DNA from: a virus
Strand: one strand, 5' to 3'
UHGV virus genome: UHGV-0120925
DNA: 30,012 nt
Position numbers and translations under genes: made by a program
Shown here: piece by piece, positions 3,572 to 29,957 of the stretch
Position numbering within the stretch: position 1 is the stretch's first letter
Layout of the letters: every line of letters begins with the position of its first letter
Notes under the pieces: generated by a model
The model's input: the letters and a program-made list of their open reading frames with translations, nothing else
Told to the model about the DNA's origin: nothing
Database searches by the model: none

Positions 3572-3598
3572 CCCCCCGCGCTAAGCGTGGTTGTTTTT
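3572..3598. terminator. Rho-independent terminator hairpin shared by the lipoprotein gene (plus) and J (minus)
   Basis: CCGCGC-TAA-GCGTGG stem (one G-U pair) followed by TTGTTTTT on the plus strand; the complement gives a U-rich tail after the J stop. Confidence 0.55.
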
Positions 3599-6500
3599 AT
3601 CCTGAGAATGAACCAGAACCGCGCGACACAATGACGGTCGGTGAATTTATATAAGCCCCCATACTATTTTGAGCGGATACCTTAATTTTAACTGTAACGG
3701 CACTACTGGTTACAGGTGATGAGTGCATTACAAGACGCTCGTTGCCGTCTATAGAAAGTTTTTTTTCTGAACCGTCAATGTTTATCGTGCAGCCACCAAA
3801 ACCTTTAACGTTTGCCATAACGCAGATATGTCTTCTATGTGCTGCACTTGATGTGTCATTGTATGTAATTGTTTTTTCGAGTACGCCATCATTTAACCTG
3901 CTAACGTCAGATCCTGTGTACATATTCGCAACGTCTCCCACAAAACTGGTAGCTTCCACAGTACCCGTGAATTTACCTCTTGTTGCTTGTATCTCACCAG
4001 TAAAGCTACCGCCACTAGCATATACTACACCTCTGACGGTCACATTGTTGAATTCAGCATCTCCAGCTTTATTCAACTTCCAACCAGCAGAACCAGCTGC
4101 ATAGTTGTTGGACTGGATATAGTTGCCGATTTTGGCGTTCTCAATGGTGCCGTCCTGGATGAAGCTGGCCCGGATGAATGTCTGCCCGTTCTGGATCACG
4201 AACGGCAAAGCTACGCCGTTACCGGCAGCTGTCGTGACTGCGAAGCGGTCAGCCAGGAAGATGACCTGTGACTGCATGCCGGACGGCGTATTCTCCACGC
4301 CGATCCCCATCCCTGCGGCGTAATACTGACCATTGCTGGAGACACCAACCTTGATGCTGTACATCGCCTTCAGATCACCGTTAACGTTCGCTATGGCCTC
4401 AGCGTTGGTGGTGATCGCAGAAGTATGTCCATTTACGGTCGCCGTGATGCTGTTTACCTGCGTGGCCATAGCCTGCTGGTAATCCGAAAACGTCTGGTTC
4501 AGGCTGTTGATGGAAGCCTTATTGCCGTTCACGTCAGTCTGCAAACTCAGCAGCGAACGCGCCGTTGCCTCCTTCTCGTTGACGATCACCTCATCAATGC
4601 GGTCCAGCTGCGCGCTGTTACCGGCGACGGATGCAGACAGCGTTTTGCGCGCCGCCACCTGCGCCAGGTTGCCCTGAATAATCGCGATGGCAGAGTTCTT
4701 CACTCCTCCCGTCATACCGTCCACAGACACGCTGATGTTATCGATGCGCTGGCCCAGCGCGGTATCAGCCGTCGCCACTGTCTGCTCAAGCTTGCTCAGA
4801 GAAGAAGACACATCTCCGACCGTGCTCGACAGGTTTGTAACGCTGGTCTGAACCTTCCCGATATCCTGGGCGTTTTTGGCGATATCTTTCGCTTGCTGCT
4901 CCAGCTCGTCGGCATGGTTTTTGATTTCGTCAGCCATGCCAGCAATTTTTTCATTGCTGTCCACTGCGCTCTCAATCAGATCTTTAAACGTATCGGAGTC
5001 TTTAATTTCCTCCAGAATCACATCTGTGATATCGGAAACATCGATGCTGGCCTGTCCTCGCACCCATTCTGTGTACCCTGATTCGTTGCCGCTGCGGTCC
5101 ACCAGCTGCGCGCGGTACCAGAAAATCTGCCCAGCCTTTAATCCCATCTGCTGATATTTACGCTGTGGGTATGGCACATCGGCCAGCAATATCGCATCAC
5201 CATCAGTACCGGTCAGGCTGTACTGAATTTCCGTCTTCAGCGTGTCGTCGGTATTCGCCGGGAATCCCCAGTTCAGCTCGATGCCGAAAACCACATTTTC
5301 AGAAGCGATGAAGCCAACCGGTTTCGGCGGATTGCCCACTTTACCCGTAAGATTTACTTCTGATGATGTCGCCCATACTGATGAAACGTCGCTGGCGTTC
5401 ACCGCCCTGACACGGACCAGATAGCGACCCGAGTAGATACCCTGCACTTCAAAGCCGAGAGAAGACGTTCGGGGCACACTAATCCAGTTGCCGCTGTCAC
5501 GCCGCCATTCCGCCTCGTACGCAACTGCACCCTGAACAGAATCCCAGGCAACGCGCATAGTGGTAATCGCAATGTTCTGGTTAACCGTAGAGTAACTGTC
5601 TACGACAATATTTCCTGGGGGAGCCTGAACCCCCGGTGGAATGACACTGACTGGCCGCTCGTCCAGTCTTGCGCCGGTATCAACAGCGGAATAGATATCA
5701 GGGTTGTAAGTCGTCCCGGTGACCTCGAAAGTACCGTCGTTGTTGTCCCGCGTTCCCGTAACACGGAAAAGCGCTATAAACAGATCGTCAGAGTCCACAC
5801 CCCAGTTACATTCAGCCTCCGGCGTTTCGCTGTAGGGTGTGGTGACAGTGACTGTGTTTCCGTTAACGGCCTGGACGGTTCTGGCCTGAGCTGTGCCTGA
5901 CGGAAGATTCAAAAACAGCCTGTTACCGGCTTTCACATCAGCAGCGCGATCGAGGGTTATGTTGCGGCCGTTAACCGCACTCACCCTGCCGCCGATAGTT
6001 CTTCCGGCCAGCTCGTTAGCAGCCACGCCGATCACCTCACCAACAGGGGGGACGTCCATGCCTGTGCTGAAGGTCACCACCTCGCCGATACCGTTGGTAA
6101 GCAGCGCCCAGCGCCCCCGCCGGTTTGCCTCTGACTGCCTGGTGCAGCCGATCGCAGTCATTTCGAGCTGACGATAATCGAAACGCATGGCCAGATCGCT
6201 ATCGTAAACAGGCTCAGGCGTATCTTTGTAGTGGTTGGCAGGGTCTGACCAGTTCACCAGCGCGGCAGTGTTTCGGGTGGTTTCACTCGGGTCCGCAAAG
6301 GTAAATTTACCCTCAACTACGCTGGCGTGGTTATAGATATGCCACACATCGCGGGGCATATCAGCCAGGACATACATCTTATTGTCACCCCAGTACGTCA
6401 TGCCGCGAAATATACCCGCCAGATCACGAAGTACGGTCCAGGCGTCATTACGGTCCTGGATATAAACGTTGCAACGAAAACGAGGCTCCGTCCCGCTGCC

Positions 6501-7493
6501 GCCCTTGCCGTCTGGTACCAGTTGATCGCAATACTGGGCGATGCGATAAAGTTCCCATTTGTCTATCTGAGTCGCATCGATTCTTTGACCCAGCCCGAAG
6601 CGCTCGTTCAGAATGATGTCGTAATAAATCCAGGCAGGGTTATCCGTCCACGCCCATTTAAATACGCCCTCCCATGTACCAGAATAAGTGCGGGTTTCGG
6701 GATCATAAGTATCAGGTACACGGATGATTCGCCCTTTCGGATTACACACAACCTGAGGAATGCCATTAGGGAACTGCTTTGCGTCAAACTCTACATACAG
6801 CAGCGCTGTGTTAACGTAGCGAAGTTTGGCGTCAATAATTTCAGTAACGGCCACAACGCGCATGGTGTCGACGATATTCACGCTCGTGGAATCCGGTGTG
6901 ATTCTGCGAACCCGCAACTGCCATCCAGTCGAGGCTTTCGGAAGATTGACGCGGTGACTGCGCTCATAAAGCGACGTGGTTTTGTCATCAACAGCACCGT
7001 TAACCACCGTTTCATACGGCCCGCCATCGACCGACAGATCGATAGCATACTCAACGCGGGTGCCGACTTTATCGCCGTTGTTTTTCTGGAGTAAAAGAGT
7101 TGGCCATCCCAGGCGAATTCGCAGCGCAGAGAGCTGCGTGTTGGATACCGCGCGCACGTACGGCACAGCCTGTTTCAGCTCATATGAAACCTGAAGTTCG
7201 TTTTCAATGCCCGGAAAGCCCTGAATGTAATCCTGGTCCTGAGTACCGGAACGGAACTCGTATTTTACATTATTGAAATTGTAACTTCCGTCGGCGTTCT
7301 GGAGAGGCGTGTATGAAGATGAGTCACCAAGGAAAATATTTTTACCATCAAGCCCACCGGCGAACTCCCCCTCCCCAAGAGCAATAAGCACTTTTGCCCT
7401 GGCAATGGACTGAATGCTGTCCGGTGCCTCAACAGGCGTTCGGGTCTGATTGCTGCCACCTTTGCCGCGGCCTTTGATGATTGTCGTCGTCAT
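3597..7493 (-). CDS. J: Central tail fibre / host specificity protein J
   Basis: 1298 aa. Strong similarity to lambda J in the region ...NTALLYVEFDAKQF...YSGTWEGVFKWAW...DKWELYRIAQYCDQLVPDG.... Position after I matches lambda order. Confidence 0.93.
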   Translation of the reverse strand: MTTTIIKGRGKGGSNQTRTPVEAPDSIQSIARAKVLIALGEGEFAGGLDGKNIFLGDSSSYTPLQNADGSYNFNNVKYEFRSGTQDQDYIQGFPGIENELQVSYELKQAVPYVRAVSNTQLSALRIRLGWPTLLLQKNNGDKVGTRVEYAIDLSVDGGPYETVVNGAVDDKTTSLYERSHRVNLPKASTGWQLRVRRITPDSTSVNIVDTMRVVAVTEIIDAKLRYVNTALLYVEFDAKQFPNGIPQVVCNPKGRIIRVPDTYDPETRTYSGTWEGVFKWAWTDNPAWIYYDIILNERFGLGQRIDATQIDKWELYRIAQYCDQLVPDGKGGSGTEPRFRCNVYIQDRNDAWTVLRDLAGIFRGMTYWGDNKMYVLADMPRDVWHIYNHASVVEGKFTFADPSETTRNTAALVNWSDPANHYKDTPEPVYDSDLAMRFDYRQLEMTAIGCTRQSEANRRGRWALLTNGIGEVVTFSTGMDVPPVGEVIGVAANELAGRTIGGRVSAVNGRNITLDRAADVKAGNRLFLNLPSGTAQARTVQAVNGNTVTVTTPYSETPEAECNWGVDSDDLFIALFRVTGTRDNNDGTFEVTGTTYNPDIYSAVDTGARLDERPVSVIPPGVQAPPGNIVVDSYSTVNQNIAITTMRVAWDSVQGAVAYEAEWRRDSGNWISVPRTSSLGFEVQGIYSGRYLVRVRAVNASDVSSVWATSSEVNLTGKVGNPPKPVGFIASENVVFGIELNWGFPANTDDTLKTEIQYSLTGTDGDAILLADVPYPQRKYQQMGLKAGQIFWYRAQLVDRSGNESGYTEWVRGQASIDVSDITDVILEEIKDSDTFKDLIESAVDSNEKIAGMADEIKNHADELEQQAKDIAKNAQDIGKVQTSVTNLSSTVGDVSSSLSKLEQTVATADTALGQRIDNISVSVDGMTGGVKNSAIAIIQGNLAQVAARKTLSASVAGNSAQLDRIDEVIVNEKEATARSLLSLQTDVNGNKASINSLNQTFSDYQQAMATQVNSITATVNGHTSAITTNAEAIANVNGDLKAMYSIKVGVSSNGQYYAAGMGIGVENTPSGMQSQVIFLADRFAVTTAAGNGVALPFVIQNGQTFIRASFIQDGTIENAKIGNYIQSNNYAAGSAGWKLNKAGDAEFNNVTVRGVVYASGGSFTGEIQATRGKFTGTVEATSFVGDVANMYTGSDVSRLNDGVLEKTITYNDTSSAAHRRHICVMANVKGFGGCTINIDGSEKKLSIDGNERLVMHSSPVTSSAVTVKIKVSAQNSMGAYINSPTVIVSRGSGSFSG

Positions 7494-7503
7494 ATCGCGT
7501 CCA

Positions 7504-7528
7504 TAAAAAAAGCCACCGTTAGGTGGCT
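7504..7528 (-). terminator. Strong intrinsic terminator between I and J
   Basis: On the minus strand AGCCACC-UAAC-GGUGGCU is followed by six U residues, ending 10 nt before the J start codon. Confidence 0.55.
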
Positions 7529-7546
7529 TACAGTGGGTGGTTTGGT

Positions 7547-8131
7547 TTATTGCTGATCTTCTGCATATATCCCGGCGGAGATAATAGCGCCGCCTATTTC
7601 TCGCTGACCATAAAGCAGGGGAACGGGATTACCGGAAGCTGTCGTATTAACGGGTCCACCAAACGCATAGGAAGGTTTGTTATCAGGATCTTGCCGCATT
7701 CGCAGACCTGAGACCTGAGGAGAGAGCATTTGCACTACACCGCCAACGGCCATCGCGGCACCTACGGAAAACATTAGGTTACTTGCTGCAATACTAACTC
7801 CTGGCATCCATATGGCCGCAGCCACCAAAGCCGTTCCGAGCAATGCCTGGAAAACTCCCGCTCTTTTGCTTCCCCTTATTACAGGGATTATTCTCAGTTC
7901 ATCCCCTGGGCCCAGGAGCTCAAACTCTTCGTGTCCGATATTGCGGCGATCCCGGAAAATAACAAAATCCAGTCCCTTTGCCCGAGCTTCACGCAGATAA
8001 GCATCAAAGCCGTCAATGGTGTTAGAAAGCGCCCTGAACACTTCGCTGGCAGACGTTAGTGCGCGGCGATGTGTCCTGCCAAATCGCTGAGCCATTGAAC
8101 CACTGAGTTTAATGACGGTTTTTCTTTCCAT
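7547..8131 (-). CDS. I: Tail assembly protein I
   Basis: Position after K with a 1-nt stop/start overlap at 8131. Gly/Ala-rich hydrophobic C-terminal half typical of lambda gpI. Confidence 0.8.
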   Translation of the reverse strand: MERKTVIKLSGSMAQRFGRTHRRALTSASEVFRALSNTIDGFDAYLREARAKGLDFVIFRDRRNIGHEEFELLGPGDELRIIPVIRGSKRAGVFQALLGTALVAAAIWMPGVSIAASNLMFSVGAAMAVGGVVQMLSPQVSGLRMRQDPDNKPSYAFGGPVNTTASGNPVPLLYGQREIGGAIISAGIYAEDQQ

Positions 8132-12900: not shown

Positions 12901-13206
12901 TAGCCTGGCATTAACAGAGCTCCATTCATCGGCCAGCGATATAAGATGACCAGTCGCAAATACTCCAGCAAATGCACCTGCCATTCCCAGCGCTGAGGCC
13001 TTCGCGGTGTTTATTTGACTAGTTACCTCAGCTAAGGCACGCTGAGTTTCACGCGAAGCTGCGGCCGCTTGGCGTCCTCCAGTCTGCATTACCCGGTAAT
13101 AGTCATTCCCCATTCTTGAAGCACGAGAAATTTCAGACTGAAATGACTGAGAGTTTGCAGATATTTTGATGATCAGTTCGCGCAACGTAGCCATATTTTC
13201 ACCCAT
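9940..13206 (-). CDS. H: Tail tape measure protein
   Basis: 1088 aa, coiled-coil and Ala/Gln-rich, at the position of lambda H between T and M. Start could be ATG 13206 or 13194. Confidence 0.9.
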   Translation of the reverse strand: MGENMATLRELIIKISANSQSFQSEISRASRMGNDYYRVMQTGGRQAAAASRETQRALAEVTSQINTAKASALGMAGAFAGVFATGHLISLADEWSSVNARLKQASQSSDDFTESQRALMDISQRTGTAFSDNASLFARSAASMREYGYSSQQVLDVTEAISTGLKLSGASTAEASSVITQFSQALAQGVLRGEEFNSVNENGDRVIRALAAGMGVARKDLKAMADQGMLTADKVVPALISQLGTMRGEFEAMPQTVSAATTKVENAFMAWVGGANEATGATSALVAVLNTVSDNIDTVATAAGALAAIGGARYLGGMFGDLGNQTAQLIDARKNEIALASARAESATQSQRKAAADAIAAERAYQLSLSELELAKNTNAEATATQNSIAKRREMIAANATLVQSNKAVSASQEALNRSTSVMNLFKSGATGLLSLVGGLPGILMLGAGAWYTMYQRQEQARESAIQYADTIEQVRDNLKSMSQTQISANLGQANISLDAQNSAIEQQKQKVAELSNQLYNAKLAANSASDGTWLYNDAVEKSAEFASELAVEEGRLEQMLNKRKQTQQLINDITDQAINKTVEMAGAVSYLTEMYDRLNKVSRQSTAVSPPKYAGPVLPALDNKQQQAIDKAQRQLELSGLKGLDKTRKQAEFDASDLNLPAGWREKYVSMEVESARQLQAIRDSSRHKGGKSEAEKTADAYDKLIKQQKEQIALQGQNTELAKVKYQVSQGELASLTEAQKKTVLQNAALIDQVKLREQLRNYEANLADSNASARAANEAQLLGYGQGSRFRERLQEQFNLRKEFEQKNTDLLRQRQAGEIDETFYQQGLALNKRYLEERLRDQEGYYAASDAQRDDWMTGLSEGYANWVDEATDYSSMAADGMKQAMGGAVTTITDMLNGNVDSWKDWGVSVLKIIQNVLVNMAVANGVSSIGSLFSFGASSSATASSGTAIQNAGANFTFNAKGNVYDSPSLSAFSNGVFQTPQLFAFAKGAGVFAEAGPEAIMPLTRAADGSLGVRAVGTPQVSGGVPSVNFGDINIQGGSPQASSQGTAGAAGWQLKDAITGVINEQASMPGSPLWRLIKGV

Positions 13207-13236
13207 AAAAAAACCCGCTTGATAGCGGGTCGTGAG
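13207..13236 (-). terminator. Intrinsic terminator immediately upstream of the tape-measure start
   Basis: On the minus strand ACCCGC-UAUCAA-GCGGGU is followed by seven U residues and then the ATG of the tape-measure gene. Confidence 0.55.
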
Positions 13237-13425
13237 TTATAAACTGTCTTTTCTTTTGTGAGCGACTTGTATTAATAAATCTATTTGCGCATCTTGTTTT
13301 TTATTTATCTCTTTAAGGGCTTCAACTTGTTCATTTGCCCTTGTGCTAAACCGTATTAAATAAAAAATCACAATTAGATTTATCAACCAGCCGAATATTC
13401 CAAACACTACTACCAGTGGTTCCAT
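13237..13425 (-). CDS. Small single-pass membrane protein (moron between T and tape measure)
   Basis: Strong RBS AAGGAGG 4 nt before ATG 13425. 62 aa with one hydrophobic helix (PLVVVFGIFGWLINLIVIFYLI) and a charged tail. Lambda has no gene at this position. Confidence 0.6.
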   Translation of the reverse strand: MEPLVVVFGIFGWLINLIVIFYLIRFSTRANEQVEALKEINKKQDAQIDLLIQVAHKRKDSL

Positions 13426-14161: not shown

Positions 14162-14605
14162 TCAGGAGCCAGACTCGATGTTTTCAGGCTTACCTTTCAG
14201 GCGCAGGGAGAACGTTGCCGCCACTACGCCGTTGGTACCGGAAGACCAGGTGTGCTGGCGGATTTCAGCCAGGAACTTAAAGCCCTTGCCGGACGGGAAG
14301 ATAACCTGGAACGCGTAGGTCGTATCGTTGTCATACGCTTCACGCAAGGCGTCCTGCGCCTGATTCTTGTAGAAGTTGCCGGACAGAGAGATTTCTGACG
14401 GAGAAGACAGGCCGTTGATGTTCTCCTGCTCGGTAGAGCAAAGTGTTGTTACGTCGATATCCTGCTTCTGACCACCGGTGAACTGAATTTCTTTGATGGT
14501 GCAACTCAGATCGAGGAAGGTTGCTGAATCCATCGTTTCTTTGGTGGCTGGCAGGGAGGAAATAAGGATCTTCGTCAGCTGCGATTTTTCATAAAGTGCA
14601 GACAT
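14162..14605 (-). CDS. Major tail (tube) protein
   Basis: 147 aa at the position of lambda V between the tail terminator and G. RBS AGGAGA. Hairpin directly upstream. Confidence 0.7.
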   Translation of the reverse strand: MSALYEKSQLTKILISSLPATKETMDSATFLDLSCTIKEIQFTGGQKQDIDVTTLCSTEQENINGLSSPSEISLSGNFYKNQAQDALREAYDNDTTYAFQVIFPSGKGFKFLAEIRQHTWSSGTNGVVAATFSLRLKGKPENIESGS

Positions 14606-14611
14606 ATCTGT

Positions 14612-14645
14612 CTCCTGGAAAAAGAAAACCCGCCATTAGCGGGCT
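14612..14645 (-). terminator. Terminator-like hairpin between the tail terminator gene and the tail tube gene
   Basis: On the minus strand AGCCCGC-UAAUG-GCGGGUU (one G-U pair) is followed by UUCUUUUU and then the tail tube RBS. Confidence 0.45.
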
Positions 14646-14663
14646 CGTTGGGTGAATTAATTG

Positions 14664-15011: not shown

Positions 15012-15457
15012 TTGCTCAGCACCTCATCAATAGCCTGATTCATCCTGGCAATGGCGACGCTGGCGGCCTCTTCCTCGCGCGTATCGTAAGCGGGTCGCAC
15101 AAAAGGATGCGCAGGCATGTTCGCAGTGCCAAGCTCCACAAAGCGCCAGTAAAAGGCGTTTCTCGGGTTATTCGCCTTCATCGTGTTATCGCTGTTTCCG
15201 GTGCGCGGGTTAACGCCACGAATGTGGACACCGGAAGAAATTTCCCCGCGGCGGCGGCTTTTTTGGGTCACCACCACCACGTTTTTTTTCAGTTTGCCGG
15301 TTCGTTCAGGTGCCCTTTCTATCACCTCATCTTTCAGAACCTCAGCACCAGCTCGAGTGGCATCACGCAGAACTTTGTTGTTTTCGGCACGGCTCAGTAA
15401 TTCCAGATCGCGGGATATCTCTTCAAGGCCAGAAAAATCCAGAGTGATATCAATCAT
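15008..15457 (-). CDS. HK97 gp10-family tail-completion / head-tail adaptor protein
   Basis: ATGA overlap with the upstream gene. Motifs ...ELGTANMPAHPFVRPAYD... are typical of the HK97 gp10 family. Confidence 0.72.
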   Translation of the reverse strand: MIDITLDFSGLEEISRDLELLSRAENNKVLRDATRAGAEVLKDEVIERAPERTGKLKKNVVVVTQKSRRRGEISSGVHIRGVNPRTGNSDNTMKANNPRNAFYWRFVELGTANMPAHPFVRPAYDTREEEAASVAIARMNQAIDEVLSK

Positions 15458-15792
15458 TTTTCCGCTCCATTTTTACAGAGTATTTCCAGCCTGGTGGCTT
15501 TACTGTCGGGTATGGGGGGGCTGATGATATTCAGTACCGCGCCTTTAAATGGTCCTGTGAGCACCTTTAATCTTGACGCAGCAGTCACATCACGCCGGAA
15601 ACGGACCCACACCCGGATCGTTGCCTGCGCCGTTTCCGCCCCCGATTGCAACTGCTCCCTGCCACTGATACCCAGCACTTCCGCCCATATGGTCTTTCCC
15701 TCCTGCCACTCTTCAACCGGCTGGCCTGTCGTATCGCGAAAAGAAGAAAAGTTCAGGATAGTGATACGATGGCGTAATCGACCTGCCTGCAT
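15454..15792 (-). CDS. Head-tail joining (head closure) protein
   Basis: RBS AGGAGGG. N-terminus ...RLRHRITI... is typical of the phage head-tail joining family. Position after the gp6-like connector. Confidence 0.72.
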   Translation of the reverse strand: MQAGRLRHRITILNFSSFRDTTGQPVEEWQEGKTIWAEVLGISGREQLQSGAETAQATIRVWVRFRRDVTAASRLKVLTGPFKGAVLNIISPPIPDSKATRLEILCKNGAEK

Positions 15793-17589: not shown

Positions 17590-18243
17590 TTAAAATTTGA
17601 TGTTTTTCAGTGCATCCAGTGCGGTACTCACTTCATCAACATCACGCTGTGAAAGTGAGCCATAACCCCCGGCCATGAATGCTTTAGCCTGGGTGCGTGA
17701 GAGCCCAACATCGCGCAGGACTCGTTCAATACTTTTTTGAGAAGGGATTTCTCCGCGGGAAAATGCGCTTTTGACATCACTTACCCGCGCTTCATCGTTC
17801 GACGGAAACGTTACGAGACTGACTTCCCACAGGTCGATCTCTTTGAGAAGGAACACGCCCTTAACACGGTCGTACTCCCAGTCTTTCAGCATGTAACCAA
17901 TAGAAAGGCCGGTTAAAGAACCGGCCTTCATGTGGGCGTGTGCGCGTTTCGAAAGGGGATCGTCATCAATGAGTAACCGGCCTTTAACATAAAGGCCAAC
18001 CTCATCTTCTTTCATCTCAGTGTAAATACCGATGGGTTCATCCATACGGTGCTGCCAGAGTAATGCAGGGAGAGCATTCTTTTCTTTCCATGCCTGAAGG
18101 GAGGCCGAAAAAGCGCCTGGCACAACAACATCATCGTAGCTGTCCTTTACGCCAAAAACAGAGCCATAGCCTTCAAACTCCCCGCTGTCGCTGACAGACT
18201 TTAGCTGTAGCGGAATATCCAGCCGCTGTTTAGTCATCGGCAT
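17590..18243 (-). CDS. Prohead protease (HK97 family)
   Basis: 217 aa between portal and capsid genes, overlapping the portal 3' end. Sequence ...GYGSVFGV.DSYDDVV.PGAF... is typical of this family. Confidence 0.88.
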   Translation of the reverse strand: MPMTKQRLDIPLQLKSVSDSGEFEGYGSVFGVKDSYDDVVVPGAFSASLQAWKEKNALPALLWQHRMDEPIGIYTEMKEDEVGLYVKGRLLIDDDPLSKRAHAHMKAGSLTGLSIGYMLKDWEYDRVKGVFLLKEIDLWEVSLVTFPSNDEARVSDVKSAFSRGEIPSQKSIERVLRDVGLSRTQAKAFMAGGYGSLSQRDVDEVSTALDALKNIKF

Positions 18244-19459
18244 TATGTTGCTCCTCGGTTGTTTTGTTCTTGCTGCTGTCTGACGGCTTCGTCGTCATGT
18301 TCATTGGCGTAAGGTAAATATCTCCGCCTGCGCGTGGGTTAAGTTCTTCAAGTTCCCGGCAGTCATTTGGTGAGTAAATCCCCCAGTTAATGCCTGTTGA
18401 ATACGCCTCAAATCGCGACTTCATATCCCCGCGCAGCAATGCGCCGGCATTGAATTTTGCGTAGTACACACCCTGCTTTGATTCCTTCACCAGCCCAATG
18501 TTGATTCGCTGCTCAATGCGGGTCATATACGGAACGAGTGAATAATTGATAAACCCCATGCCGAGGTTTTCAATATTGTTAAACGTAGAGCGGTCAGTGT
18601 TCTGCACCATGTGCATCGGCACCCGGAACAGGCGGCATATTTCCTCCAGCTGAAATTTTCTGGTCTCAAGGAACTGACTGTCTTCCGCATTGAGCGCCAT
18701 CGACTTCCAGTCCAGTCCCATTTCGAGAATCATTGGTCGGTGCGCGTTGCTCAGCCCGAGGTGACGATCCTCAAAATCTTTTTTCAGCCTTGCGTAAGCA
18801 GCATCAGTGAGAGTTTGTTCAGTACGGAGTACGCCGGAGGTAACCGCGCCATTTGAGAACAACCGAGCCCCATGTTCCTCTGTTGCCATTCCCAGAGATA
18901 TTGCTTCTCTTGCATAGGCTATAGGGTTGAGCCCCACCAGTCCGTCAAAGGTAAGCGTTCTGACATGCCAGATATCATCCTGCCCAAGCACATCTGTTGA
19001 ACCATCGGGGAATGTTACCTGGTAAACCGGCTGCCACTGGCTGTTAAGCTTTGGTTCAACACACCCGGGGTCAATAGGAAGCAGCTCCACCACCTCGCCA
19101 AGCGCTTTAACTTTGTAGGCGTAAAAATTACCGCGAAGACAAAGACAGACAATGACCAGCTCCCAGAACTCCTGGGGGGTCATGTAATCATTTGGCTTCA
19201 TCGTCAGTAATTTATGCAGCCTTTCAGAAGTCGCTTTTTGTTTACTGTTTCCGGTTATCTTGTACAGGTTACAGGGCAGCATACCCATCGACTCAGCAAG
19301 AACCCTGATACAACCGAAAACTGCTGTAAGCCGCATGGCTTTCTGGCTGCTTACCCTTTTCCCTGTATAGGTGTCGTAAGTCATTCCCACTGCTTCAGCG
19401 AGTTCTGCCGGAGTAGTGACAGGGGCGTCACTTTTTTTGAACATTCCGGGGAAAAACAT
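18230..19459 (-). CDS. Portal protein
   Basis: 409 aa directly downstream of terL. Typical HK97-type portal length and position. Confidence 0.88.
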   Translation of the reverse strand: MFFPGMFKKSDAPVTTPAELAEAVGMTYDTYTGKRVSSQKAMRLTAVFGCIRVLAESMGMLPCNLYKITGNSKQKATSERLHKLLTMKPNDYMTPQEFWELVIVCLCLRGNFYAYKVKALGEVVELLPIDPGCVEPKLNSQWQPVYQVTFPDGSTDVLGQDDIWHVRTLTFDGLVGLNPIAYAREAISLGMATEEHGARLFSNGAVTSGVLRTEQTLTDAAYARLKKDFEDRHLGLSNAHRPMILEMGLDWKSMALNAEDSQFLETRKFQLEEICRLFRVPMHMVQNTDRSTFNNIENLGMGFINYSLVPYMTRIEQRINIGLVKESKQGVYYAKFNAGALLRGDMKSRFEAYSTGINWGIYSPNDCRELEELNPRAGGDIYLTPMNMTTKPSDSSKNKTTEEQHNADD

Positions 19460-19644
19460 CAGTCAGTCCCTCCTCGCAATGTTTTCCCGGCCAGCGAAAG
19501 CGTGCGGGAAACCAGCCATGACCAGATAAGGCAAAGCATACCCGCACTGATTAAGCCTCCAGGCGGATAAATCATCCATACACCAAACGAAAGCAAAATA
19601 GCGCCCATCACCCCGATCAGTGGGGCGAGAATCATCAGGATCAT
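19459..19644 (-). CDS. Small two-helix membrane protein between terL and portal
   Basis: RBS AAGAGG before ATG 19644. Stop overlaps the portal start (TGATG). Two hydrophobic segments in 61 aa. Confidence 0.5.
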   Translation of the reverse strand: MILMILAPLIGVMGAILLSFGVWMIYPPGGLISAGMLCLIWSWLVSRTLSLAGKTLRGGTD

Positions 19645-21909: not shown

Positions 21910-22443
21910 AATCGAAAACTCCTATTAATCATCGGCTGTGGGACCCCAAAAAAAGTTTTCTAACCTGCGGCGATGTGAAGAAAGGCTAGGCGGCGGTCCT
22001 TTTGGCGCCCGGTTACAGGGATTTGACCTCCCCCTCCCCTCCACATCCGTTGATGGTAATCATTATCATTTGAAGCGTTCACGCCCTGTTTTCGAGCGGT
22101 GGCAAGGCCAGCACAGGCTTTCAAGGTTCGAATCATCATCGGTACACGTAAACGTGCTGTATCACCGGGTGCGATCCGGTCGGTGAGAGAGTATCCCCGC
22201 GCGAGAGCGAGAACGGCGTGAGAACGGGCAACACTGGCAGGGAGTTGGCGCTGACCAATACAGGGAATGTTATGGGATGTGGTGAAGGGTTCATGGACGG
22301 GAATATGTCGCACGTAAAGCGGCGAGGCCCGAGGAGCTATTGCCGAAGATAAGTAGGCCGAATCGGGTCGAAATGGGTCTCCCACCTACCACAGCACCAA
22401 AGCATTTCTCCCGCATCAGCGGGTAACTAAGTGGAGAGTAAGT
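21910..22443. promoter_or_regulatory. Non-coding divergent control region between the late (minus) and early-left (plus) operons; likely holds promoters and the packaging site
   Basis: About 530 bp with no RBS-supported ORF. GC-rich, with short direct repeats (GAGAACGG twice at 22207..22226). Exact promoter and cos/pac positions cannot be fixed from sequence alone. Confidence 0.4.
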
Positions 22444-22665: not shown

Positions 22666-22962
22666 ATGATCGACGACATCAAGCGCATCGACTCAATGAT
22701 AAATGCGCTTCGCAATATGAAACAGGACATCAAGCGTCAGCAGAAACTAAGTGAAATAAACAGTTTAGACCTGTCGCCGAAGCAAGCTCAAAAGCGCAAT
22801 GCCGATGCTGACTGGATTGCGATGGAACAGATTAAGCGTCGGCATGAGCTGCACGCTCTGTCTGTTGAGCTTGGGTTCGCTGAGCGCCGGGAAAGTTATG
22901 CTCCATTTGAATTAACTGACGGGTGGCACCGATTCGACCACAAGCCGCGCGAACCTCAATAG
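22666..22962 (+). CDS. Hypothetical protein (98 aa)
   Basis: RBS AAGGGG. Preceded at fixed spacing by the repeated 17-nt motif. Terminator follows. Confidence 0.55.
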   Translation: MIDDIKRIDSMINALRNMKQDIKRQQKLSEINSLDLSPKQAQKRNADADWIAMEQIKRRHELHALSVELGFAERRESYAPFELTDGWHRFDHKPREPQ

Positions 22963-23890: not shown

Positions 23891-24030
23891 GCGAAAGCCC
23901 ACCGAAGTGGGCCCGCCATGTCCGGCCTCACCGACCAAAGTTACACCGGAAACAACATTAAAACCAAAGTTAACCCAATGGGCGCTATCAATGGTCCGGG
24001 GATTCTAACACCCAAAAATGAGGATCTCAC

Positions 24031-26937
24031 ATGGAATTCTTTAATGTGGTTAAAGCCACTCAGAAATCCGGAAAGCAAGATGCAGTGGTCTGGTTCACTG
24101 CTAAAACCGAGGCTCGCGCCAATCTGATGCTGGATGTTGCGCTGGAAGATGCAGGTATCGAAACAGGTCGGGGTAAGGACTACGCCAAACCGATTCGCAC
24201 TGATTTCCCAGTTGTCGACGGCCTGCCGAAAGAAGGTGAAGTTGATTTTACCTGGTGTGATCGCTACGAGCTTCATGACGATGGGCGCACCTGGCTGCCA
24301 AAAGTCACAGCTGAAAACTCTGACGAGAAAACGGCTCAGACCGTTGATAGTCACATAACTACTGAGTCAACGCTGTCAGAAACCGCTGGCATCACGCTGG
24401 ACGAACACGACGACGACTCAACCCTCTACCCGGTAGTGCAGATGCCGTTTCGTAAGCAACTGCTTTCCCAGTTCACCGCCGACGAACTGCGCCACCACGT
24501 AACCCATGAAGAGTACGAAGCTATCGGCGCGCTGGAGATGGACACTGATAACAGTTACGTCCAGAACTTGCTGTTAGCTGCTGAGAACTGCCCGGAAGTG
24601 AAGGGTTACGACACCAAAGACCTGTGGCGTTACACCGATGCCATTCGCAAAGTGTTCAGCCAGGACAAGCGTCACGAACTCGCGCTGGTACTCCGTTTCA
24701 CCAGAATGTGGGCGGCGACTGATTACATTGACCGTGGCATCCTGGCGCGTGAATGGGCCGCCGGTAATCGCATCAGTAGTGTGCAGCGTACTGATTCCGG
24801 CACTAATGCCGACGGCGGTTACGTCACTGACCGTGGACCTGAGGCACACCACACACTGGACACTCTCGATTTAGAGATTGCGTGTGCCCTTCTGCCTATG
24901 GACTTCAACCACTTCGAGATCCCGGGCAGCATTCTTCGTCGCGCTAAAGAAATCGTGACCAAAAAAGAAGAACCATGGAAATCATGGAGCAACATCCTGC
25001 GCAATCAGCCAGGCGTTCTGGGTGTTAACCGCACGGCTATTTTTAACCTGGTACGTATCGCACCGGAAAATATTCATTTAACTCCTGTCGCTCACCTGGA
25101 ATTTGTTAACCAGACCATGACAGCCGCGTTCAATTCCGCGGTCGAGTTATTGCCGTTGCATGAAGCTGAACCCGCAGCACAGGAAATTCCCCAACCTGAA
25201 GGTAAGGAGTCTCCGCGCAAATCCTTCTGCACTCACGAAGAGAACCTGCAACGCGTGCGTGAAGAAGGAGCACGCCGCCGCGCAGAGGAAGCGGCAGCAC
25301 AACCGCAGAAAGTCGAACAAGAACTGGTTAAAAATGTCGGCAACGGAATATTCGACGTTACGGCTTTGCTGCAGAACTCAGCAACTCATGGCACGAAAAA
25401 GGCTACGGAGACCACCAGCAATGTGCAGGTTCAAGAAACTGTCAGTGATGAAAAACAAGCTGGTGATGAAGTACAGCCAGGCGAAAGCAGTCTGGAGTCT
25501 GGTGAAGAGTCAGATACCAGCCAGAAGGACGATGTAGACCAGAATACGGATTCTGTCGCCAAAAATAGCGATTCTGTAAGCCAAACCGAACCAGTTGCAA
25601 CACAAACCGAGCCAGAAGCGCAATCTGACGAACCAGCTGTTGTTTATCCCGCTTATTTCGAGCCAGGCCGCTATGAAGGGCTGCCAAACGAGGTTTACCA
25701 CGCCGCCAACGGCATCAGCTCAACCCAGGTGAAAGATGCGCGCGTTTCGCTGATGTACTTCAATGCGCGCCACGTAGAGAAAACCATCGTCAAAGAGCGC
25801 TCAGCGGTGCTGGACATGGGCAACTTGGTGCATGCGCTGGCGTTGCAGCCTGAACTACTGGACGCAGAATTCAGCGTTGAACCGGTGATCCCTGAAGGCG
25901 CATTCACAACGGCCGCGACCCTGCGCGCCTTTATCGATGAGCACAATGCCAGCCTGCCGGCGCTGCTGTCTGCCGACGACATCAAGGTGTTACTGGAAGA
26001 GTACAACGCCACCCTGCCGCCGCAGGTTCCGCTTGGCGCTAACCTGGAAGAAACGGCACAGAACTATATGGCGCTGCCAGCTGACTTCCAGCGTATTGAT
26101 GGTGACCAGAAGCAGACGGCGACGGCAATGAAGGCATGCATTAAAGAGTACAACGCCACCCTGCCGCCGCCGGTTAAAACCAGCGGCAGCCGTGACGCGC
26201 TGCTGGAGCAGTTGGCAATCATCAACCCTGACCTTGTGGCTCAGGAAGCACAGAAACCGGCACCACTGAAAGTGTCCGGTACCAAAGCAGACATGATCCA
26301 GGCCGTGAAGGCAGTCAAACCAGATGCCGTATTTGCCGACGAACTGCTGGATGCCTGGCGCGATAACCCGGAAGGAAAAGTGCTGGTCACCCGCCAGCAG
26401 CTGAGCACCGCGCTGAATATTCAAAAAGCGCTTCTGGCACACCCGACCGCCGGCATGCTGCTGACCCACCCTAGCCGAGCCGTTGAGGTGAGCTACTTTG
26501 GTTTTGACGAGGAGACGGGCTTGGAAGTTCGTGTGCGCCCTGACCTTGAGATCGACCTGGATGGCGTGCGTATAGGTGCAGACCTGAAAACCATCAGCAT
26601 GTGGAATGTTAAGCAGGAAAGCCTGCGCGCCAGGCTACACCGGGAAATTATTGAACGTGATTATCACCTGAGCGCGGCTATGTACTGCGAAACCGCAGCG
26701 CTGGATCAGTTCTTCTGGATTTTCGTCAACAAAGACGAGAACTACCACTGGATCGCCATCATCGAGGCATCCGCTGAACTACTGGAGCTGGGTATGCTCG
26801 AGTACCGCAAAGCGATGCGCAATATCGCAACCGGATTCGACACAGGTGAATGGCCAGCGCCAATCACTGCTGACTACACCGACGAACTGAACGACTTCGA
26901 CCTGCGCCGCCTTGAAGCGCTGCGTACTCAGGCATAA
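24031..26937 (+). CDS. recE: RecE-like exonuclease VIII (C-terminal PD-(D/E)XK nuclease domain) with long N-terminal extension
   Basis: 968 aa immediately upstream of recT. C-terminal region ...YFEPGRYEGLPNEVYHAANGISSTQ...DLEIDLDGVRIGADLKT... is consistent with a RecE/YqaJ-type nuclease. Central acidic low-complexity stretch. Confidence 0.8.
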   Translation: MEFFNVVKATQKSGKQDAVVWFTAKTEARANLMLDVALEDAGIETGRGKDYAKPIRTDFPVVDGLPKEGEVDFTWCDRYELHDDGRTWLPKVTAENSDEKTAQTVDSHITTESTLSETAGITLDEHDDDSTLYPVVQMPFRKQLLSQFTADELRHHVTHEEYEAIGALEMDTDNSYVQNLLLAAENCPEVKGYDTKDLWRYTDAIRKVFSQDKRHELALVLRFTRMWAATDYIDRGILAREWAAGNRISSVQRTDSGTNADGGYVTDRGPEAHHTLDTLDLEIACALLPMDFNHFEIPGSILRRAKEIVTKKEEPWKSWSNILRNQPGVLGVNRTAIFNLVRIAPENIHLTPVAHLEFVNQTMTAAFNSAVELLPLHEAEPAAQEIPQPEGKESPRKSFCTHEENLQRVREEGARRRAEEAAAQPQKVEQELVKNVGNGIFDVTALLQNSATHGTKKATETTSNVQVQETVSDEKQAGDEVQPGESSLESGEESDTSQKDDVDQNTDSVAKNSDSVSQTEPVATQTEPEAQSDEPAVVYPAYFEPGRYEGLPNEVYHAANGISSTQVKDARVSLMYFNARHVEKTIVKERSAVLDMGNLVHALALQPELLDAEFSVEPVIPEGAFTTAATLRAFIDEHNASLPALLSADDIKVLLEEYNATLPPQVPLGANLEETAQNYMALPADFQRIDGDQKQTATAMKACIKEYNATLPPPVKTSGSRDALLEQLAIINPDLVAQEAQKPAPLKVSGTKADMIQAVKAVKPDAVFADELLDAWRDNPEGKVLVTRQQLSTALNIQKALLAHPTAGMLLTHPSRAVEVSYFGFDEETGLEVRVRPDLEIDLDGVRIGADLKTISMWNVKQESLRARLHREIIERDYHLSAAMYCETAALDQFFWIFVNKDENYHWIAIIEASAELLELGMLEYRKAMRNIATGFDTGEWPAPITADYTDELNDFDLRRLEALRTQA

Positions 26938-26942
26938 GGGGA

Positions 26943-28061
26943 ATGATGATGGAAAACACGAATATCGTAACCGCTGAACAGCAGACTCCAAACACGATCT
27001 CAGCCAGCAATGCCATTTTCAACGTGCAGGCTTTAACCCAGCTTCAGTCTGTCGCCGGGTTGATGGCACAGGCAGCCGTAACGGTGCCTGAGCACCTCCG
27101 CGGCAATCCGGCAGACTGCATGGCCATCATCATGCAGGCGATGCAGTGGGGTATGAACCCTTACGCCGTGGCGCAAAAGACGCACCTGGTTAACGGTGTC
27201 CTGGGATACGAAGCGCAACTGGTTAATGCGGTGATCTCCAGCTCAAACGCCATCGTTGGCCGCTTTCACTATGAGTACGAGGGCGACTGGTCGAAATGTG
27301 CCAGCAGCCGCGAGATAACCGTTAAAAAGCCTGCGAAAGGTGGCGGGACGTACGACAAGAAAGAAATGGTACGCGGTTGGGAAAGTGCTGATGAACAAGG
27401 ACTGTCGGTACGGGTAGGTGCCGTTATTCGCGGTGAAAGTGATATCACCTGGGGAGAGCCTGTTTTACTCTCCAGCGTAATCACACGTAATTCTCCACTT
27501 TGGGTATCAAACCCGAAACAGCAGATCGCTTATCTGGCACTCAAATACTGGGCGCGCCTATATTGCCCTGCAGTTGTTCTTGGTGTGTACACCCCTGATG
27601 AGATTGAACAGCGCACAGAAAAAGAGATCAACCCAACGCCGCAACGCGTTAGCCTGGCTGATATCTCAGGTGACACCGTCACAACCACGCAAAGCGCACA
27701 GGAATCGTCGGTAAATGTCGACTCTCTTGCCGATGATTTCCGCGAACGCATCGAATCTGCTCAGGACGTGGATAGCACCAAATCGCTGCGTGCCGACATT
27801 GAAACGGCGAAAGCTACGCTGGGATCCGCACTATTCACCGAGCTGAAAAACAAAGCCGTAAAGCGTTATTACCTAGTGGATGCACGCAACAAGGTTGAGG
27901 AGGCTATTAAATCCCTGCCCCAGCCCGACGAGCCGCATGCAGCCGAACGGTTCGCTGAAGCCGAGCGCATGCTTACATCTTCAAAGCGTCACTTAGGCGA
28001 TGAACTGCACGATCAATTCAGCATCACCCTGGCGGATATGAAACCGGAATACGTGGCCTGA
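26943..28061 (+). CDS. recT: RecT single-strand annealing recombinase
   Basis: RBS AAGGGG. Region ...CMAIIMQAMQWGMNPYAVAQKTHLVNGVLGYEAQ... matches the RecT family. Paired with the upstream RecE-like gene. Confidence 0.9.
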   Translation: MMMENTNIVTAEQQTPNTISASNAIFNVQALTQLQSVAGLMAQAAVTVPEHLRGNPADCMAIIMQAMQWGMNPYAVAQKTHLVNGVLGYEAQLVNAVISSSNAIVGRFHYEYEGDWSKCASSREITVKKPAKGGGTYDKKEMVRGWESADEQGLSVRVGAVIRGESDITWGEPVLLSSVITRNSPLWVSNPKQQIAYLALKYWARLYCPAVVLGVYTPDEIEQRTEKEINPTPQRVSLADISGDTVTTTQSAQESSVNVDSLADDFRERIESAQDVDSTKSLRADIETAKATLGSALFTELKNKAVKRYYLVDARNKVEEAIKSLPQPDEPHAAERFAEAERMLTSSKRHLGDELHDQFSITLADMKPEYVA

Positions 28062-28383: not shown

Positions 28384-28581
28384 ATGGATGATATTTTGGT
28401 AACGTCAGACCTGACCAGTCGCTACAAAATTTCACGCAAAACCCTTTGGTCATGGCAAAGTGCAGACACAATGCCTCGGGGCTTCGTATGCCCGTTCCCA
28501 CCCCCTGACTGGCCCGGCAACCCTAACCGCTGGCGCTCTGAGTCAATCAAAGAGTGGGAGGATAAAAAGAAGATAAATTAA
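28384..28581 (+). CDS. xis: Excisionase / AlpA-like DNA-binding protein
   Basis: Start at ATG 28384 with RBS GGAGAG; the track ORF from 28339 begins with TTG. Pattern ...[12 protein letters not shown]...PRGFVCPFP... fits the AlpA/Xis winged-helix family. Converges on the int 3' end. Confidence 0.6.
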
Positions 28582-29771
28582 CTGAAGGGCTCTCCGATGA
28601 TCTCTTCAAGATGGCTCTGCCAAACGCGGAGCCAGTGTTTCTGATCATCGATATAGTCATGAAGGTTGTAATGCGCCATAACCCCCACCATCTGATGCCC
28701 GAGCAGCTTTTCAATTACGTGCGGCGGGCAACCTAACTCAGAGAGATTTGTGGCTATCGTCCGCCTCATATCATGAAGCGACCACTCTGCCATACCTGTT
28801 CCATTCCAAATAGAACGGGCGTAATTGGATGCCACAGGTGAATGAACGGGCGAATCTTTGATCCCGCCATCAATTTTACGTTGTGAAGTCACCAGGTGAT
28901 TGGTGTTTATTTTCTTGAGGTGATTTCTGACCAGGTTAACGGCGGCGTCTGAGAGTCCCCTTCTAATATGTACCCGAGTTTTATAACTGCCCGCAGGCAC
29001 GACCCACTCATTATCATCCAATCGAAACCATGATCTCTCACTAAGTCGAATCTCAGCCGTACGGCATCCGGTAAGCATAATAAATTTCACCAGGAAAACG
29101 GACTCTATCGACATATGGCTTTTCAACCACTGATAGATTTTGCGCAGATCGTCATCGTCCATCCTGCGAGTTCTCTTTTTAGGCTTTTGCCCGACATCAG
29201 ATGGCAGTAATCCCTCGAGTGGGTTTGAGGCGATCACACTTCTGTTAACGCAGAACCTAAACGCCCGTTTGCACAGCGAAAGCATGTAATGAGCCATCAC
29301 CCTGCTTTCTATAGAATCGAAGACGTTGATCCAGTGCATTTTCGCTGTGTTATCGACTTTGACATTCTTCATCGGTTCGGCGATATGTTTCTCAAACACC
29401 TGGCGATAGTAATCGACTTTAACTAGCCCGTTAGCGATACAGTGCCTTTCAATCCAGTAATTGAACGCTTCGGCAACGGACATCGCTTCCTGTCGGGTCT
29501 GCTTATCCAGCTTCACCTGCTCTCGCGGATCCAGTCCCTCAGTTAACCAGTTTCTGAATTGTTGGCGACGCTCTCTTGCCTGGGTGATACTCATTGCAGG
29601 ATAATCACCAACATTGAGTTTTACCGCTTTACCGGCCCAGCGATACCGATAGAAAAATGATATTTTTCCGGCCTGGCTGATTCTGGCGTTGAGCCCGTGC
29701 GAATCAGAAATAATCTCGATATCATCTCTTTTCTTGCCGAGCGCCTTCCTGAGCTTTGTGTCGGTGATCAT
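28578..29771 (-). CDS. int: Tyrosine site-specific integrase
   Basis: C-terminal catalytic region with R...HDMRRT...H...Y residues ([30 protein letters not shown]). Start set at ATG 29771 ([10 protein letters not shown]), typical of P4-type integrase N-termini; upstream in-frame codons run through the GTACACA repeats and are probably untranslated. Confidence 0.88.
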
Positions 29772-29776
29772 TGAAT

Positions 29777-29817
29777 GGGTACACATTTTTGTTTTTGGGT
29801 ACACAAAAGTGTACACA
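29777..29817. repeat. Three direct repeats of G(G/T)GTACACA just upstream of the integrase start; candidate arm-type or operator sites
   Basis: GGGTACACA at 29777..29785 and 29797..29805, GTGTACACA at 29809..29817 (contains the palindrome GTGTACAC). A single GTACACA also sits in the left-end hairpin loop at 136..142. Confidence 0.4.
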
Positions 29818-29957
29818 AAGTTGCCCACTCAAAGCTACACGCAATGTAACACTAGTTCGCAGAGTGTTATGGTTTACATCCTTGAAAGCCTGCTGGATAA
29901 GGGTTTAGCGTAACAGAACGTTTTTACGCGGAATTGTTCGTAATATGCCAAATGACA

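Follow-up and report, generated by a model that had tools for sequence, protein, structure and literature searches.

A probable resident intrinsic terminator between tail genes I and J of a lambdoid late operon, equivalent in position to the I-J hairpin of lambda

Terminators inside lambdoid late operons are read through by Q-loaded polymerase, which is textbook biology. An intrinsic terminator consists of a GC-rich hairpin followed by a U-tract of 7-8 nt, and Q renders RNA polymerase resistant to such signals (PMC6606751). In the Caulobacter GTA cluster, internal terminators are bypassed only via the antiterminator GafZ (PMC11150451). Both this cluster and the lambda late operon follow the same logic, in which terminators of a structural operon are passed only by a modified polymerase; the two antiterminators, GafZ and Q, are different, and the DNA analysed here does not encode a late-gene antiterminator. 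The first moron described was gp15 of HK97; morons, accessory genes that phage genomes have acquired, carry a promoter and a terminator of their own and are expressed from repressed prophages (PMC3594210). The PeSLs of T4-like phages are composite terminator/promoter motifs that mediate modular shuffling (PMC4122927).

In lambda (NC_001416) gene I ends at 15444 and gene J starts at 15505, leaving a gap of 60 nt (15445..15504) with the sequence UGAUGCAAAAUGUUUUAUGUGAAACCGCCUGCGGGCGGUUUUGUCAUUUAUGGAGCGUGAGGAAUG. The gap contains an eight-pair hairpin, AAACCGCC-UGCG-GGCGGUUU, which is followed by UGUCAUUUAUGGAG; the NC_001416 record has no feature annotated in it. Among viral contigs the stem is kept in all 76 readable lambda-type loci (24 distinct sequences), with a loop that varies between UGCG, UCCG and UCAG. 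In phage HK639 (GenBank HM208537) a "terminator" is annotated at 19137..19160 between the genes for tail assembly (I) and host specificity (J). The element reported here is thus already known, since it exists in lambda and is annotated in HK639, and it is ordinary as a finding. A full-text literature search that included lambda late-operon terminators, Term-seq, HK639 and the conserved 14-mer retrieved no paper on the I-J hairpin.

The stretch of DNA analysed, here called the window, comprises 30,012 nucleotides of the virus genome UHGV-0120925. Its late genes are all encoded on the minus strand, and coupled genes overlap. In the sense of transcription the order is terminase small and large subunits, portal, prohead protease, major capsid protein, head-tail connectors, major tail protein, chaperones, tape measure, M, L, K, I and J; an identical order is annotated in a near-identical Escherichia coli prophage. 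Gene I (7547..8131, minus strand, 194 aa) was assigned by its open reading frame, a Pfam Lambda_tail_I match (E = 7e-8) and the annotation of relatives as tail assembly protein. Gene J (3597..7493, minus strand, 1298 aa) codes for the tail tip or host-specificity protein and has the Pfam matches FNIII-A_GpJ, Phage-tail_3 and Phage_Tail_Tip. The I stop codon UAA (7549..7547) is followed on the minus strand by a spacer of 17 nt (7530..7546), the sequence of which is not conserved while its length is kept (15-18 nt in relatives). A ribosome parked at the I stop codon would not reach a hairpin at this distance or prevent its folding. The 17 nt of the window do not hold an accessory open reading frame.

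In the hairpin itself (7510..7529, minus strand), the 5' arm AAGCCACC spans 7529..7522 and the 3' arm GGUGGCUU spans 7517..7510, with the loop UAAC (7521..7518) between them. A run of seven U (7505..7511, minus strand) lies directly 3' of the G/C-rich stem core and forms the most conserved columns of the junction (invariant T); the first two of these U are able to pair with the AA found at the stem base. The remaining 11 nt up to the J AUG (7493..7491) are filled by the ribosome-binding site, with no promoter in between. This translation-initiation region, AUGGACGCGAU (7494..7504, minus strand), is a diverged copy of the consensus AUGGGUGAAAU and carries the Shine-Dalgarno-like GGACGCGAU at 7502..7494, which we read as a match to the complement of the 16S rRNA 3' end. 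The eight pairs (five of them G-C) and the loop of four fold with -12.6 kcal/mol when taken alone and the six-pair G/C-rich core with -10.1 kcal/mol; the fold in its 76-nt context has a z-score of -2.25, and 5 of 200 shuffles folded equally well. The signal is unidirectional, since the plus strand (ACAGTGGG) has a hairpin without a T-run after it. A preceding sequence-only reading had placed a hairpin with a U-run between I and J at 7504..7528, and its coordinates are right: the structure is of the canonical intrinsic-terminator type, on the coding strand and just upstream of J. Its description as a 7-bp stem with six U ending 10 nt before J concerns the same structure, with the boundary between stem and tail drawn one base differently.

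Lambda and the window share the position of the hairpin relative to I and J, the eight-pair stem and the four-base loop, and the lambda hairpin is followed by UUUAUGGAG. The stems, AAACCGCC/GGCGGUUU in lambda and AAGCCACC/GGUGGCUU in the window, differ by two compensated pairs (A-U to G-C and G-C to A-U). The U-run of lambda is interrupted (UUUUGUCAUUUAU), whereas that of the window is unbroken, which by sequence gives lambda a much weaker terminator score. HK639 has the same junction, strand and architecture, AAGCACCC-AAUU-GGGUGCUU with seven U, AUGGAUGUAAU and the AUG; its stem sequence differs from that of the window, its I protein is 51.5% identical, and its terminator is known as an annotation.

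A lenient terminator scan of the window detected 26 sites compared with 20.1 +/- 3.9 in shuffled sequences, so there is no overall enrichment. When the definition was made strict (7 or more Watson-Crick pairs, 5 or more of them G-C, a loop of 3-6 bases, and 6 or more T among the 8 bases that follow the last G/C pair), three sites were found in the 30-kb window, at 7529..7510, 13230..13213 and 17928..17905, where 200 dinucleotide-preserving shuffles gave a mean of 0.01. All three have the sense orientation of the late operon (minus strand) and are located within or adjoining its few long intergenic gaps. Terminator strength, a prediction proposed with the sequence-only reading, was calculated as a d'Aubenton-Carafa-type score with energies from ViennaRNA and values taken per site; a genome-wide scan with this score passed over the site at 13231, where it drew the boundary between stem and tail through a G-U pair. 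The I-J hairpin of the window reached about 34, compared with 36 for the HK639 I-J terminator, 31 for the hairpin preceding the tape-measure gene (the moron terminator), 42 for the site of the T1-like phage pSf-1 and about 19 for the lambda I-J hairpin. The predicted strength is thus in the range of good terminators. Rfam reported no family at the I-J site at gathering thresholds.

To describe the junction in relatives, loci were gathered with the I protein as bait (80 from viral contigs and 33 from a set with one genome per species), and the start of J was located in 96 loci, including the window, lambda and three annotated relatives. A GC hairpin with a U-run is present in 95 of these 96 loci and in 46 of 47 distinct J-upstream sequences, with 5-8 U directly after the stem, and it ends about 16 nt before J. 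The hosts include Enterobacter, Kluyvera, Pantoea, Rahnella, Erwinia, Providencia and Acinetobacter, and the identity of the I proteins among element-bearing relatives goes down to 33% (Acinetobacter prophages). The distance from the I stop codon to the hairpin is 15-18 nt, that from the end of the stem to the J start 15-19 nt in Enterobacterales, and the 14 nt after the U-run are strongly conserved. The stems vary: the 47 distinct sequences contain 23 different ones with compensatory changes, for example GGCCGCC/GGCGGC, GGCUCGC/GCGGGCC, AAGGUCGUCC/GGACGGCCUU, AACCCGC/GCGGGUU, AACCGGC/GCCGGUU and GGCGCA/UGCGCC.

Covariation was counted for the eight-pair structure, with 35 distinct sequences in a plain MAFFT alignment. 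Standard pairs occupied 82.8% of the cells, compared with 73.6 +/- 1.1% after shuffling; six of the eight pairs were changed on both sides (2.9 +/- 1.1 in shuffles), as were 22 cells (7.5 +/- 2.5 in shuffles). The covariation score of 0.263 (0.125 in shuffles) was matched by none of 500 shuffles, and sliding the 3' partner by 1-3 columns reduced it to 0.116 or less. These counts are conservative, because a few stems whose loops have five or six bases are misplaced in the alignment. Across the junction the spacer is variable, the stem covaries, the loop is free, the U-run is invariant and the ribosome-binding region is conserved; judged from the alignment, this is the pattern of a terminator. 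An accessory open reading frame is present at the I-J junction of some relatives (L008, L075, L104, L105, L108 and L110), and gene insertions in relatives do fall just upstream of the hairpin.

Inspection of twelve named phages at the I-J junction gave a mixed picture. The element is present in HK639 and mEpX2. In Pseudomonas phage 5399, I is closely followed by a hairpin whose tail is U-rich and which precedes an open reading frame; downstream, the record has a gene annotated on the opposite strand. The Stx-type phage Lys8385Vzw has an I-J gap of 245 nt with several hairpins, one of which has a U-run about 45 nt before J. In Dhillonvirus WFI, Burkholderia phage vB_E438, Vibrio phage Cla, Moraxella phage Mcat10 and Klebsiella phage vB_Kp3, I and J overlap or almost touch and there is no hairpin. 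phi80 carries the accessory gene morF between I and J; J overlaps morF and an I-J hairpin is absent, while "putative rightward transcription terminators" are annotated within the tail operon of the phi80 record. The element is dispensable for tail making, because several phages with I and J have neither gap nor hairpin. In the virulent T1-like phages pSf-1 (Shigella) and K50_evo2 (Klebsiella) a GC hairpin with 6-9 U directly follows I; unlike in the window, TTGCGC-17-TATAAT and a leader of approximately 45 nt lie between the hairpin and J. Such a layout fits a true terminator followed by a promoter, and would imply that J is re-initiated there and not read through.

The window does not contain a Q gene. 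Homology on the terminase/HNH side stops at approximately 22145, within the gene for an HNH endonuclease, and from approximately 22143 onwards the sequence is 99.6% identical at the nucleotide level to the pL-N region of phi80. It encodes a phi80-type N of 98 aa (22666..22962, plus strand; 99.6% nucleotide identity to phi80), followed by genes for RecE-family and RecT-family proteins and an integrase. N acts on early operons. Immunity, replication and lysis genes as well as Q and a late promoter are missing from the window, and no complete E. coli genome spans the joint at ~22144. The lack of Q is due to truncation or rearrangement of the prophage at this position, and the copy in the window is probably a rearranged, defective prophage. 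An intact prophage of E. coli SZQ1 is 99.5% identical across K-I-J, and PGAP annotates there, upstream of the same tail genes, replication proteins, a "bacteriophage antitermination protein Q", two holins, an endolysin, HNH and terminase; all of these genes share one orientation. The absence of Q in the window thus marks a truncated, probably defective prophage and not an unusual regulatory design.

The arrangement of hairpin, U-run and start signals is not restricted to J. A second copy of the module is found before the tape-measure gene (13205..13231, minus strand), with the hairpin GACCCGCUAUCAAGCGGGUU at 13231..13212, seven U at 13213..13207 and then AUGGGUGAAAAU; the AUG at 13194 (MATLRELI) is the probable true start of the tape measure. 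The sequence after this hairpin, UUUUUUUAUGGGUGAAAAUAUG, is near-identical to the I-J consensus of relatives, UUUUUUUAUGGGUGAAAUAUG. Between the chaperone and tape-measure genes, at the position of the HK97 gp15 moron, lies a YebO-like open reading frame of 62 aa (13237..13425, minus strand; Pfam YebO, E = 1e-9), annotated as YebO family protein in SZQ1, and the hairpin follows its stop codon. The open reading frame at 13237..13425 and the hairpin at 13212..13231 are equivalent to the moron terminator arrangement of HK97 gp15, whereas the I-J hairpin of the window has no accessory gene ahead of it. A third, weaker hairpin with a U-rich tail (14626..14646, minus strand) lies ahead of the major tail gene (AUG 14605), where the intergenic gap measures 58 nt.

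When viral contigs were scanned for exact copies of the 20-mer U6-AUGGGUGAAA(N)UAUG, at least 121 matches in at least 119 stretches were obtained. Among the matches listed, the final AUG of the 20-mer starts J in 50 cases and the tape measure in 45; the remaining listed matches start 13 other unrelated protein clusters, giving at least 15 unrelated clusters in total. The others include L and M (minor tail), I, a Mu Gp36-like protein, a Mu-type DNA-circularisation protein, an HNH endonuclease and an amidase. In 99% of the 121 matches listed the U-run is immediately preceded by a stable hairpin (-7 kcal/mol or better), compared with 24% of random 32-mers from the same loci. Most phages have this arrangement, in shorthand hairpin / U-run / AUGGGUGAAAUAUG, at the chaperone/tape-measure junction without a moron, the hairpin following directly after the stop codon; accessory genes, if one of the two junctions has any, occupy the space from the upstream stop codon to the hairpin. 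The terminator looks resident rather than imported, because moron-less relatives have the hairpin at both junctions. The I-J hairpin might be read as a copy of a portable junction cassette (terminator hairpin, U-run, the ribosome-binding site AUGGGUGAAAU and AUG) that serves as a docking site, an idea which we put forward tentatively and consider somewhat unlikely. From the sequences compared, the cassette may be resident at late-operon boundaries of siphophages and Mu-like phages, before J, the tape measure, L, M, I, the amidase, the HNH endonuclease and others. If this were true, an accessory gene dropped upstream of the hairpin would at once gain a terminator, and the downstream phage gene would keep its start signals; that the cassette promotes gene gain is a hypothesis built on this arrangement. 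It would revise the textbook view that morons bring their own terminator, and the cassette would be to lambdoid phages what the PeSL cassettes are to T4. With PeSLs it shares the nature of a short conserved stem-loop regulatory unit at many gene boundaries with gene gain and loss, but in the cassette the terminator is joined to a ribosome-binding site and not to a promoter. The recurrent combination of terminator and ribosome-binding site may merit a dedicated comparison of the ways in which tail operons acquire accessory genes.

We consider it reasonably probable that the I-J element is an intrinsic terminator resident in a lambdoid late operon under Q antitermination, equivalent in position to the I-J hairpin of lambda. 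It is taken as such because it has the full sequence features of an intrinsic terminator (G/C stem, short loop, U-tract and sense-strand location) and because compensatory changes indicate selection that preserves the structure; that it actually terminates, that Q reads through it and why it was selected are what we infer from this. With ordinary RNA polymerase, the six-pair G/C-rich stem would fold as the seven-U tract is transcribed, and the RNA would be released 11-18 nt before the J AUG. Transcription that has not begun at the Q-controlled late promoter, for instance stray transcription or that from promoters of accessory genes expressed in the lysogen, would stop short of J and the distal genes, while during lytic growth Q-loaded polymerase would ignore intrinsic terminators and J would be made. 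The U-run is packed against the ribosome-binding site of J, probably via compaction of the junction, and may double as its U-rich leader. The read-through half of this model does not apply to the copy in the window, because the window has no Q; without the Q, late-promoter and lysis segment the terminator would sit in an orphaned late operon and could only block. The most economical idea for the selective role is insulation, which is favoured because accessory genes of relatives lie immediately upstream of this hairpin and because repressed prophages express morons (PMC3594210). The fixed distance to the start codon and the conserved 14 nt suggest that selection also acts on translation initiation, and termination may perhaps not be the whole function or even not the selected one.

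A role in translation initiation could also stand at the centre. The hairpin would then sequester the upstream sequence and the U-run would be an unstructured landing site for ribosomes (protein S1); J is uncoupled from I and would need an efficient start of its own, and termination would be a side effect that is tolerated as Q-loaded polymerase ignores it. This would account for the almost fixed distance of 15-19 nt between the end of the stem and the AUG in Enterobacterales, for the 14 nt after the U-run that are highly conserved and unchanged before at least 15 unrelated genes, and for the observation that, in the window's tail module, each of the three long gaps shows the order hairpin, U-rich tract, Shine-Dalgarno and AUG, whereas coupled genes overlap. 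Yet insulation of a ribosome-binding site does not require a perfect run of 6-8 U abutting a G/C stem, and this is the most invariant feature; moreover, in the T1-like phages approximately 45 nt, including a promoter-like site, separate hairpin and U-run from the start codon, and phages with overlapping I and J do without a hairpin. We regard such a module as unlikely to be the main explanation; it is compatible with the terminator reading and the two are not exclusive. A function in RNA punctuation is also not exclusive with termination and seems improbable to us. Here, the hairpin would shield the 3' end of the K-I message after endonuclease cleavage in the U/A-rich stretch or, alternatively, would protect the long J message as a 5' stem, so that segments of the late transcript get different lifetimes. 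A stable stem followed by a single-stranded U/A-rich tract fits this, such hairpins occur at boundaries where the demand for protein changes (before the major tail gene and at lambda D/E), and terminator hairpins are reported to raise the stability of upstream mRNA (PMC11696848). However, K and I are needed in small amounts, which leaves no evident reason for stabilising their message, and no observation made here separates punctuation from termination.

The sequence-only reading had regarded the hairpin as a terminator inserted specifically in this element, which attenuates J or makes J dependent on an antiterminator that is not visibly encoded, on the grounds that I and J are contiguous in lambda. 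The window has indeed no Q, and this part holds; it does encode the phi80-type N at 22666..22962 on the plus strand, which acts on early operons. The two lambda genes are 60 nt apart in NC_001416 with an equivalent hairpin between them, and the element occurs in the J-upstream sequences of 46 of 47 distinct relatives and in 76 of 76 readable lambda-type loci, which contradicts an insertion. Furthermore, the intact, near-identical prophage of SZQ1 has Q, and Q is missing from the window through the truncation at ~22144, which no complete E. coli genome shares. The observation of the hairpin was therefore sound and the interpretation was built on a wrong premise about lambda; an element-specific attenuator is very improbable, and the gap before J should not be taken for an anomaly or an insertion. 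That the inverted repeat arose by chance and has no function could be argued from the lenient scan, in which terminator-like sites were not enriched overall, but three strict sites were found where 0.01 were expected and the stem is conserved with compensatory changes, leaving this option a negligible probability. The reading as a resident terminator of the late operon is the one we prefer.

Several further candidates were considered and rejected. A promoter-like match at 7610..7581 (minus strand) would lead straight into the hairpin, and the frequency of such matches is within chance expectation. The hairpin could have been the 3' end of a small RNA like the phage RNA PreS; the spacer between I and the hairpin is not conserved, hence there is no conserved seed, and lambda PreS belongs to the early left operon at tL2a. 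A recombination linker was also considered: in sliding comparisons of nine relatives with the window, identity shifts inside gene I (7741..7941) and not at the hairpin. Loci with an ATPase gene after I (L051-L065 and L084) had appeared as I-J insertions; a host-like gene comes next in L084, and these are prophages truncated after I. Enterobacter "phage" LAU1 was discarded as evidence for viability, as its record contains host genes and an ISEcp1-CTX-M-15 insertion and represents a prophage remnant.

An exact scan of viral contigs placed the 20-mer U6-AUGGGUGAAA(N)UAUG immediately 5′ of the start codon in genes from at least 15 unrelated clusters of phage proteins (loci L210-L328). Among the matches listed, the genes behind the 20-mer encode J, tape measure, L, M, I, a Mu Gp36-like protein, a DNA-circularisation protein, an HNH protein, an amidase and others. 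At least 119 stretches carry the 20-mer, compared with well under one expected by chance according to a rough estimate. The GC hairpins located 5′ of it vary in sequence, and a stable hairpin is present in 99% of the matches listed. Judged by sequence, the 20-mer and its hairpin look like a recurrent cassette, in which a terminator is joined to a ribosome-binding site.

At the I-J junction, seven relatives (L008, L010, L075, L104, L105, L108 and L110) have an extra 400-825 nt with small ORFs between the I stop codon and the hairpin, and the hairpin with its U-run is still found immediately 5′ of J; several of these inserts are closed by the shared motif AACAUCCUGAUAUUCGAUCAGUAA. In the alignment of the I-J junctions, nearly all relatives have a start codon as the first triplet 3′ of the U-run. 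This triplet is AUG in most of them, including lambda, GUG in L100, L110, L111 and L115, and AUU in L112-L114. The short frame opened by this triplet showed no conservation in the same alignment.

In the tail module of the window, each of the three long gaps between genes shows the order hairpin, U-rich tract, Shine-Dalgarno, AUG. The 58-nt gap preceding the major tail gene contains a hairpin with a U-rich tail (14626..14646, minus strand); AGGAG and then the AUG at 14605 lie 3′ of it. A copy of the hairpin/U-run/20-mer-type module lies before the tape-measure gene (13205..13231, minus strand). The ORF listing and the comparison with relatives differ in the start of this gene (13192..13206, minus strand): the listed ORF begins at AUG 13206, straight after the U-run and without a Shine-Dalgarno sequence, whereas the conserved start, shared with about 45 relatives among the matches listed, is the AUG at 13194 (MATLRELI). 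The two AUGs are in frame in the window, 12 nt apart; in most relatives the corresponding AUGs are separated by 11 nt and lie in different frames. A strong hairpin of 10 pairs, AAGGCCGGUU-CUUU-AACCGGCCUU, whose U-rich tail is weak, is located in the sense orientation within the prohead protease coding region (17905..17928, minus strand).

Between the tail chaperone and tape-measure genes the window encodes a YebO-like ORF of 62 amino acids (13237..13425, minus strand) with its own ribosome-binding site, AAGGAGG, and the terminator-type hairpin at 13231..13212 comes after it. The ORF shares position and family with the superinfection-exclusion moron gp15 of HK97.

The hairpin that follows gene I in virulent T1-like phages shares sequence with a promoter-like TTGCGC-17-TATAAT (L120, 1786..1865; L129, 1801..1878), with the -35 element within the stem-loop and the U-run as spacer. 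From its sequence, this site is a predicted composite terminator/promoter, conserved in one Shigella and one Klebsiella phage. One group of relatives carries a 62-aa ORF and a 483-aa ABC-type ATPase downstream of gene I (L058, 3315..4766; L084, 3487..4938). The best PADLOC match of the ATPase is HEC-04 (E = 5e-48), and it is also AriA- and GajA-like. One more gene is found behind the ATPase in L084, which by eye is DNA glycosylase-like and looks host-derived. J was not found within the 2.5-kb flank, so the prophage ends after I.

Lambda has further sense hairpins between D and E (GGCCGCCUGUGCGGCU followed by U7, 6100..6115) and after lom (GCCCGCCGGAACCGGUGGGC followed by U6, 19613..19632); by the terminator score used here, the latter is the strongest in the left 23 kb. 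MN688132, recorded as "Enterobacter phage LAU1, complete genome", was rejected as a phage genome and is a prophage remnant: early and lysis genes are missing from the record, which opens with the host genes yeaG and yeaH and closes with ISEcp1, blaCTX-M-15 and a Tn2 transposase.

The window itself probably represents a prophage that is defective or rearranged. It lacks the immunity, replication and lysis genes, Q and the late promoter, and at approximately 22143..22145 a truncated HNH endonuclease/terminase segment meets a segment 99.6% identical to the pL-N region of phi80, a joint that is not spanned by any complete E. coli genome. Downstream of a phi80-type N antiterminator gene (22666..22962, plus strand) come a RecE-family gene (968 aa) and a RecT-family gene (24031..28061, plus strand), and an integrase gene is encoded on the opposite strand (28578..29828, minus strand). 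In Rfam, the Hfq-binding small RNA isrB matches a stretch immediately upstream of the RecE-family gene (23892..23989, minus strand) with 38.2 bits (gathering score 35) and E = 0.0013.
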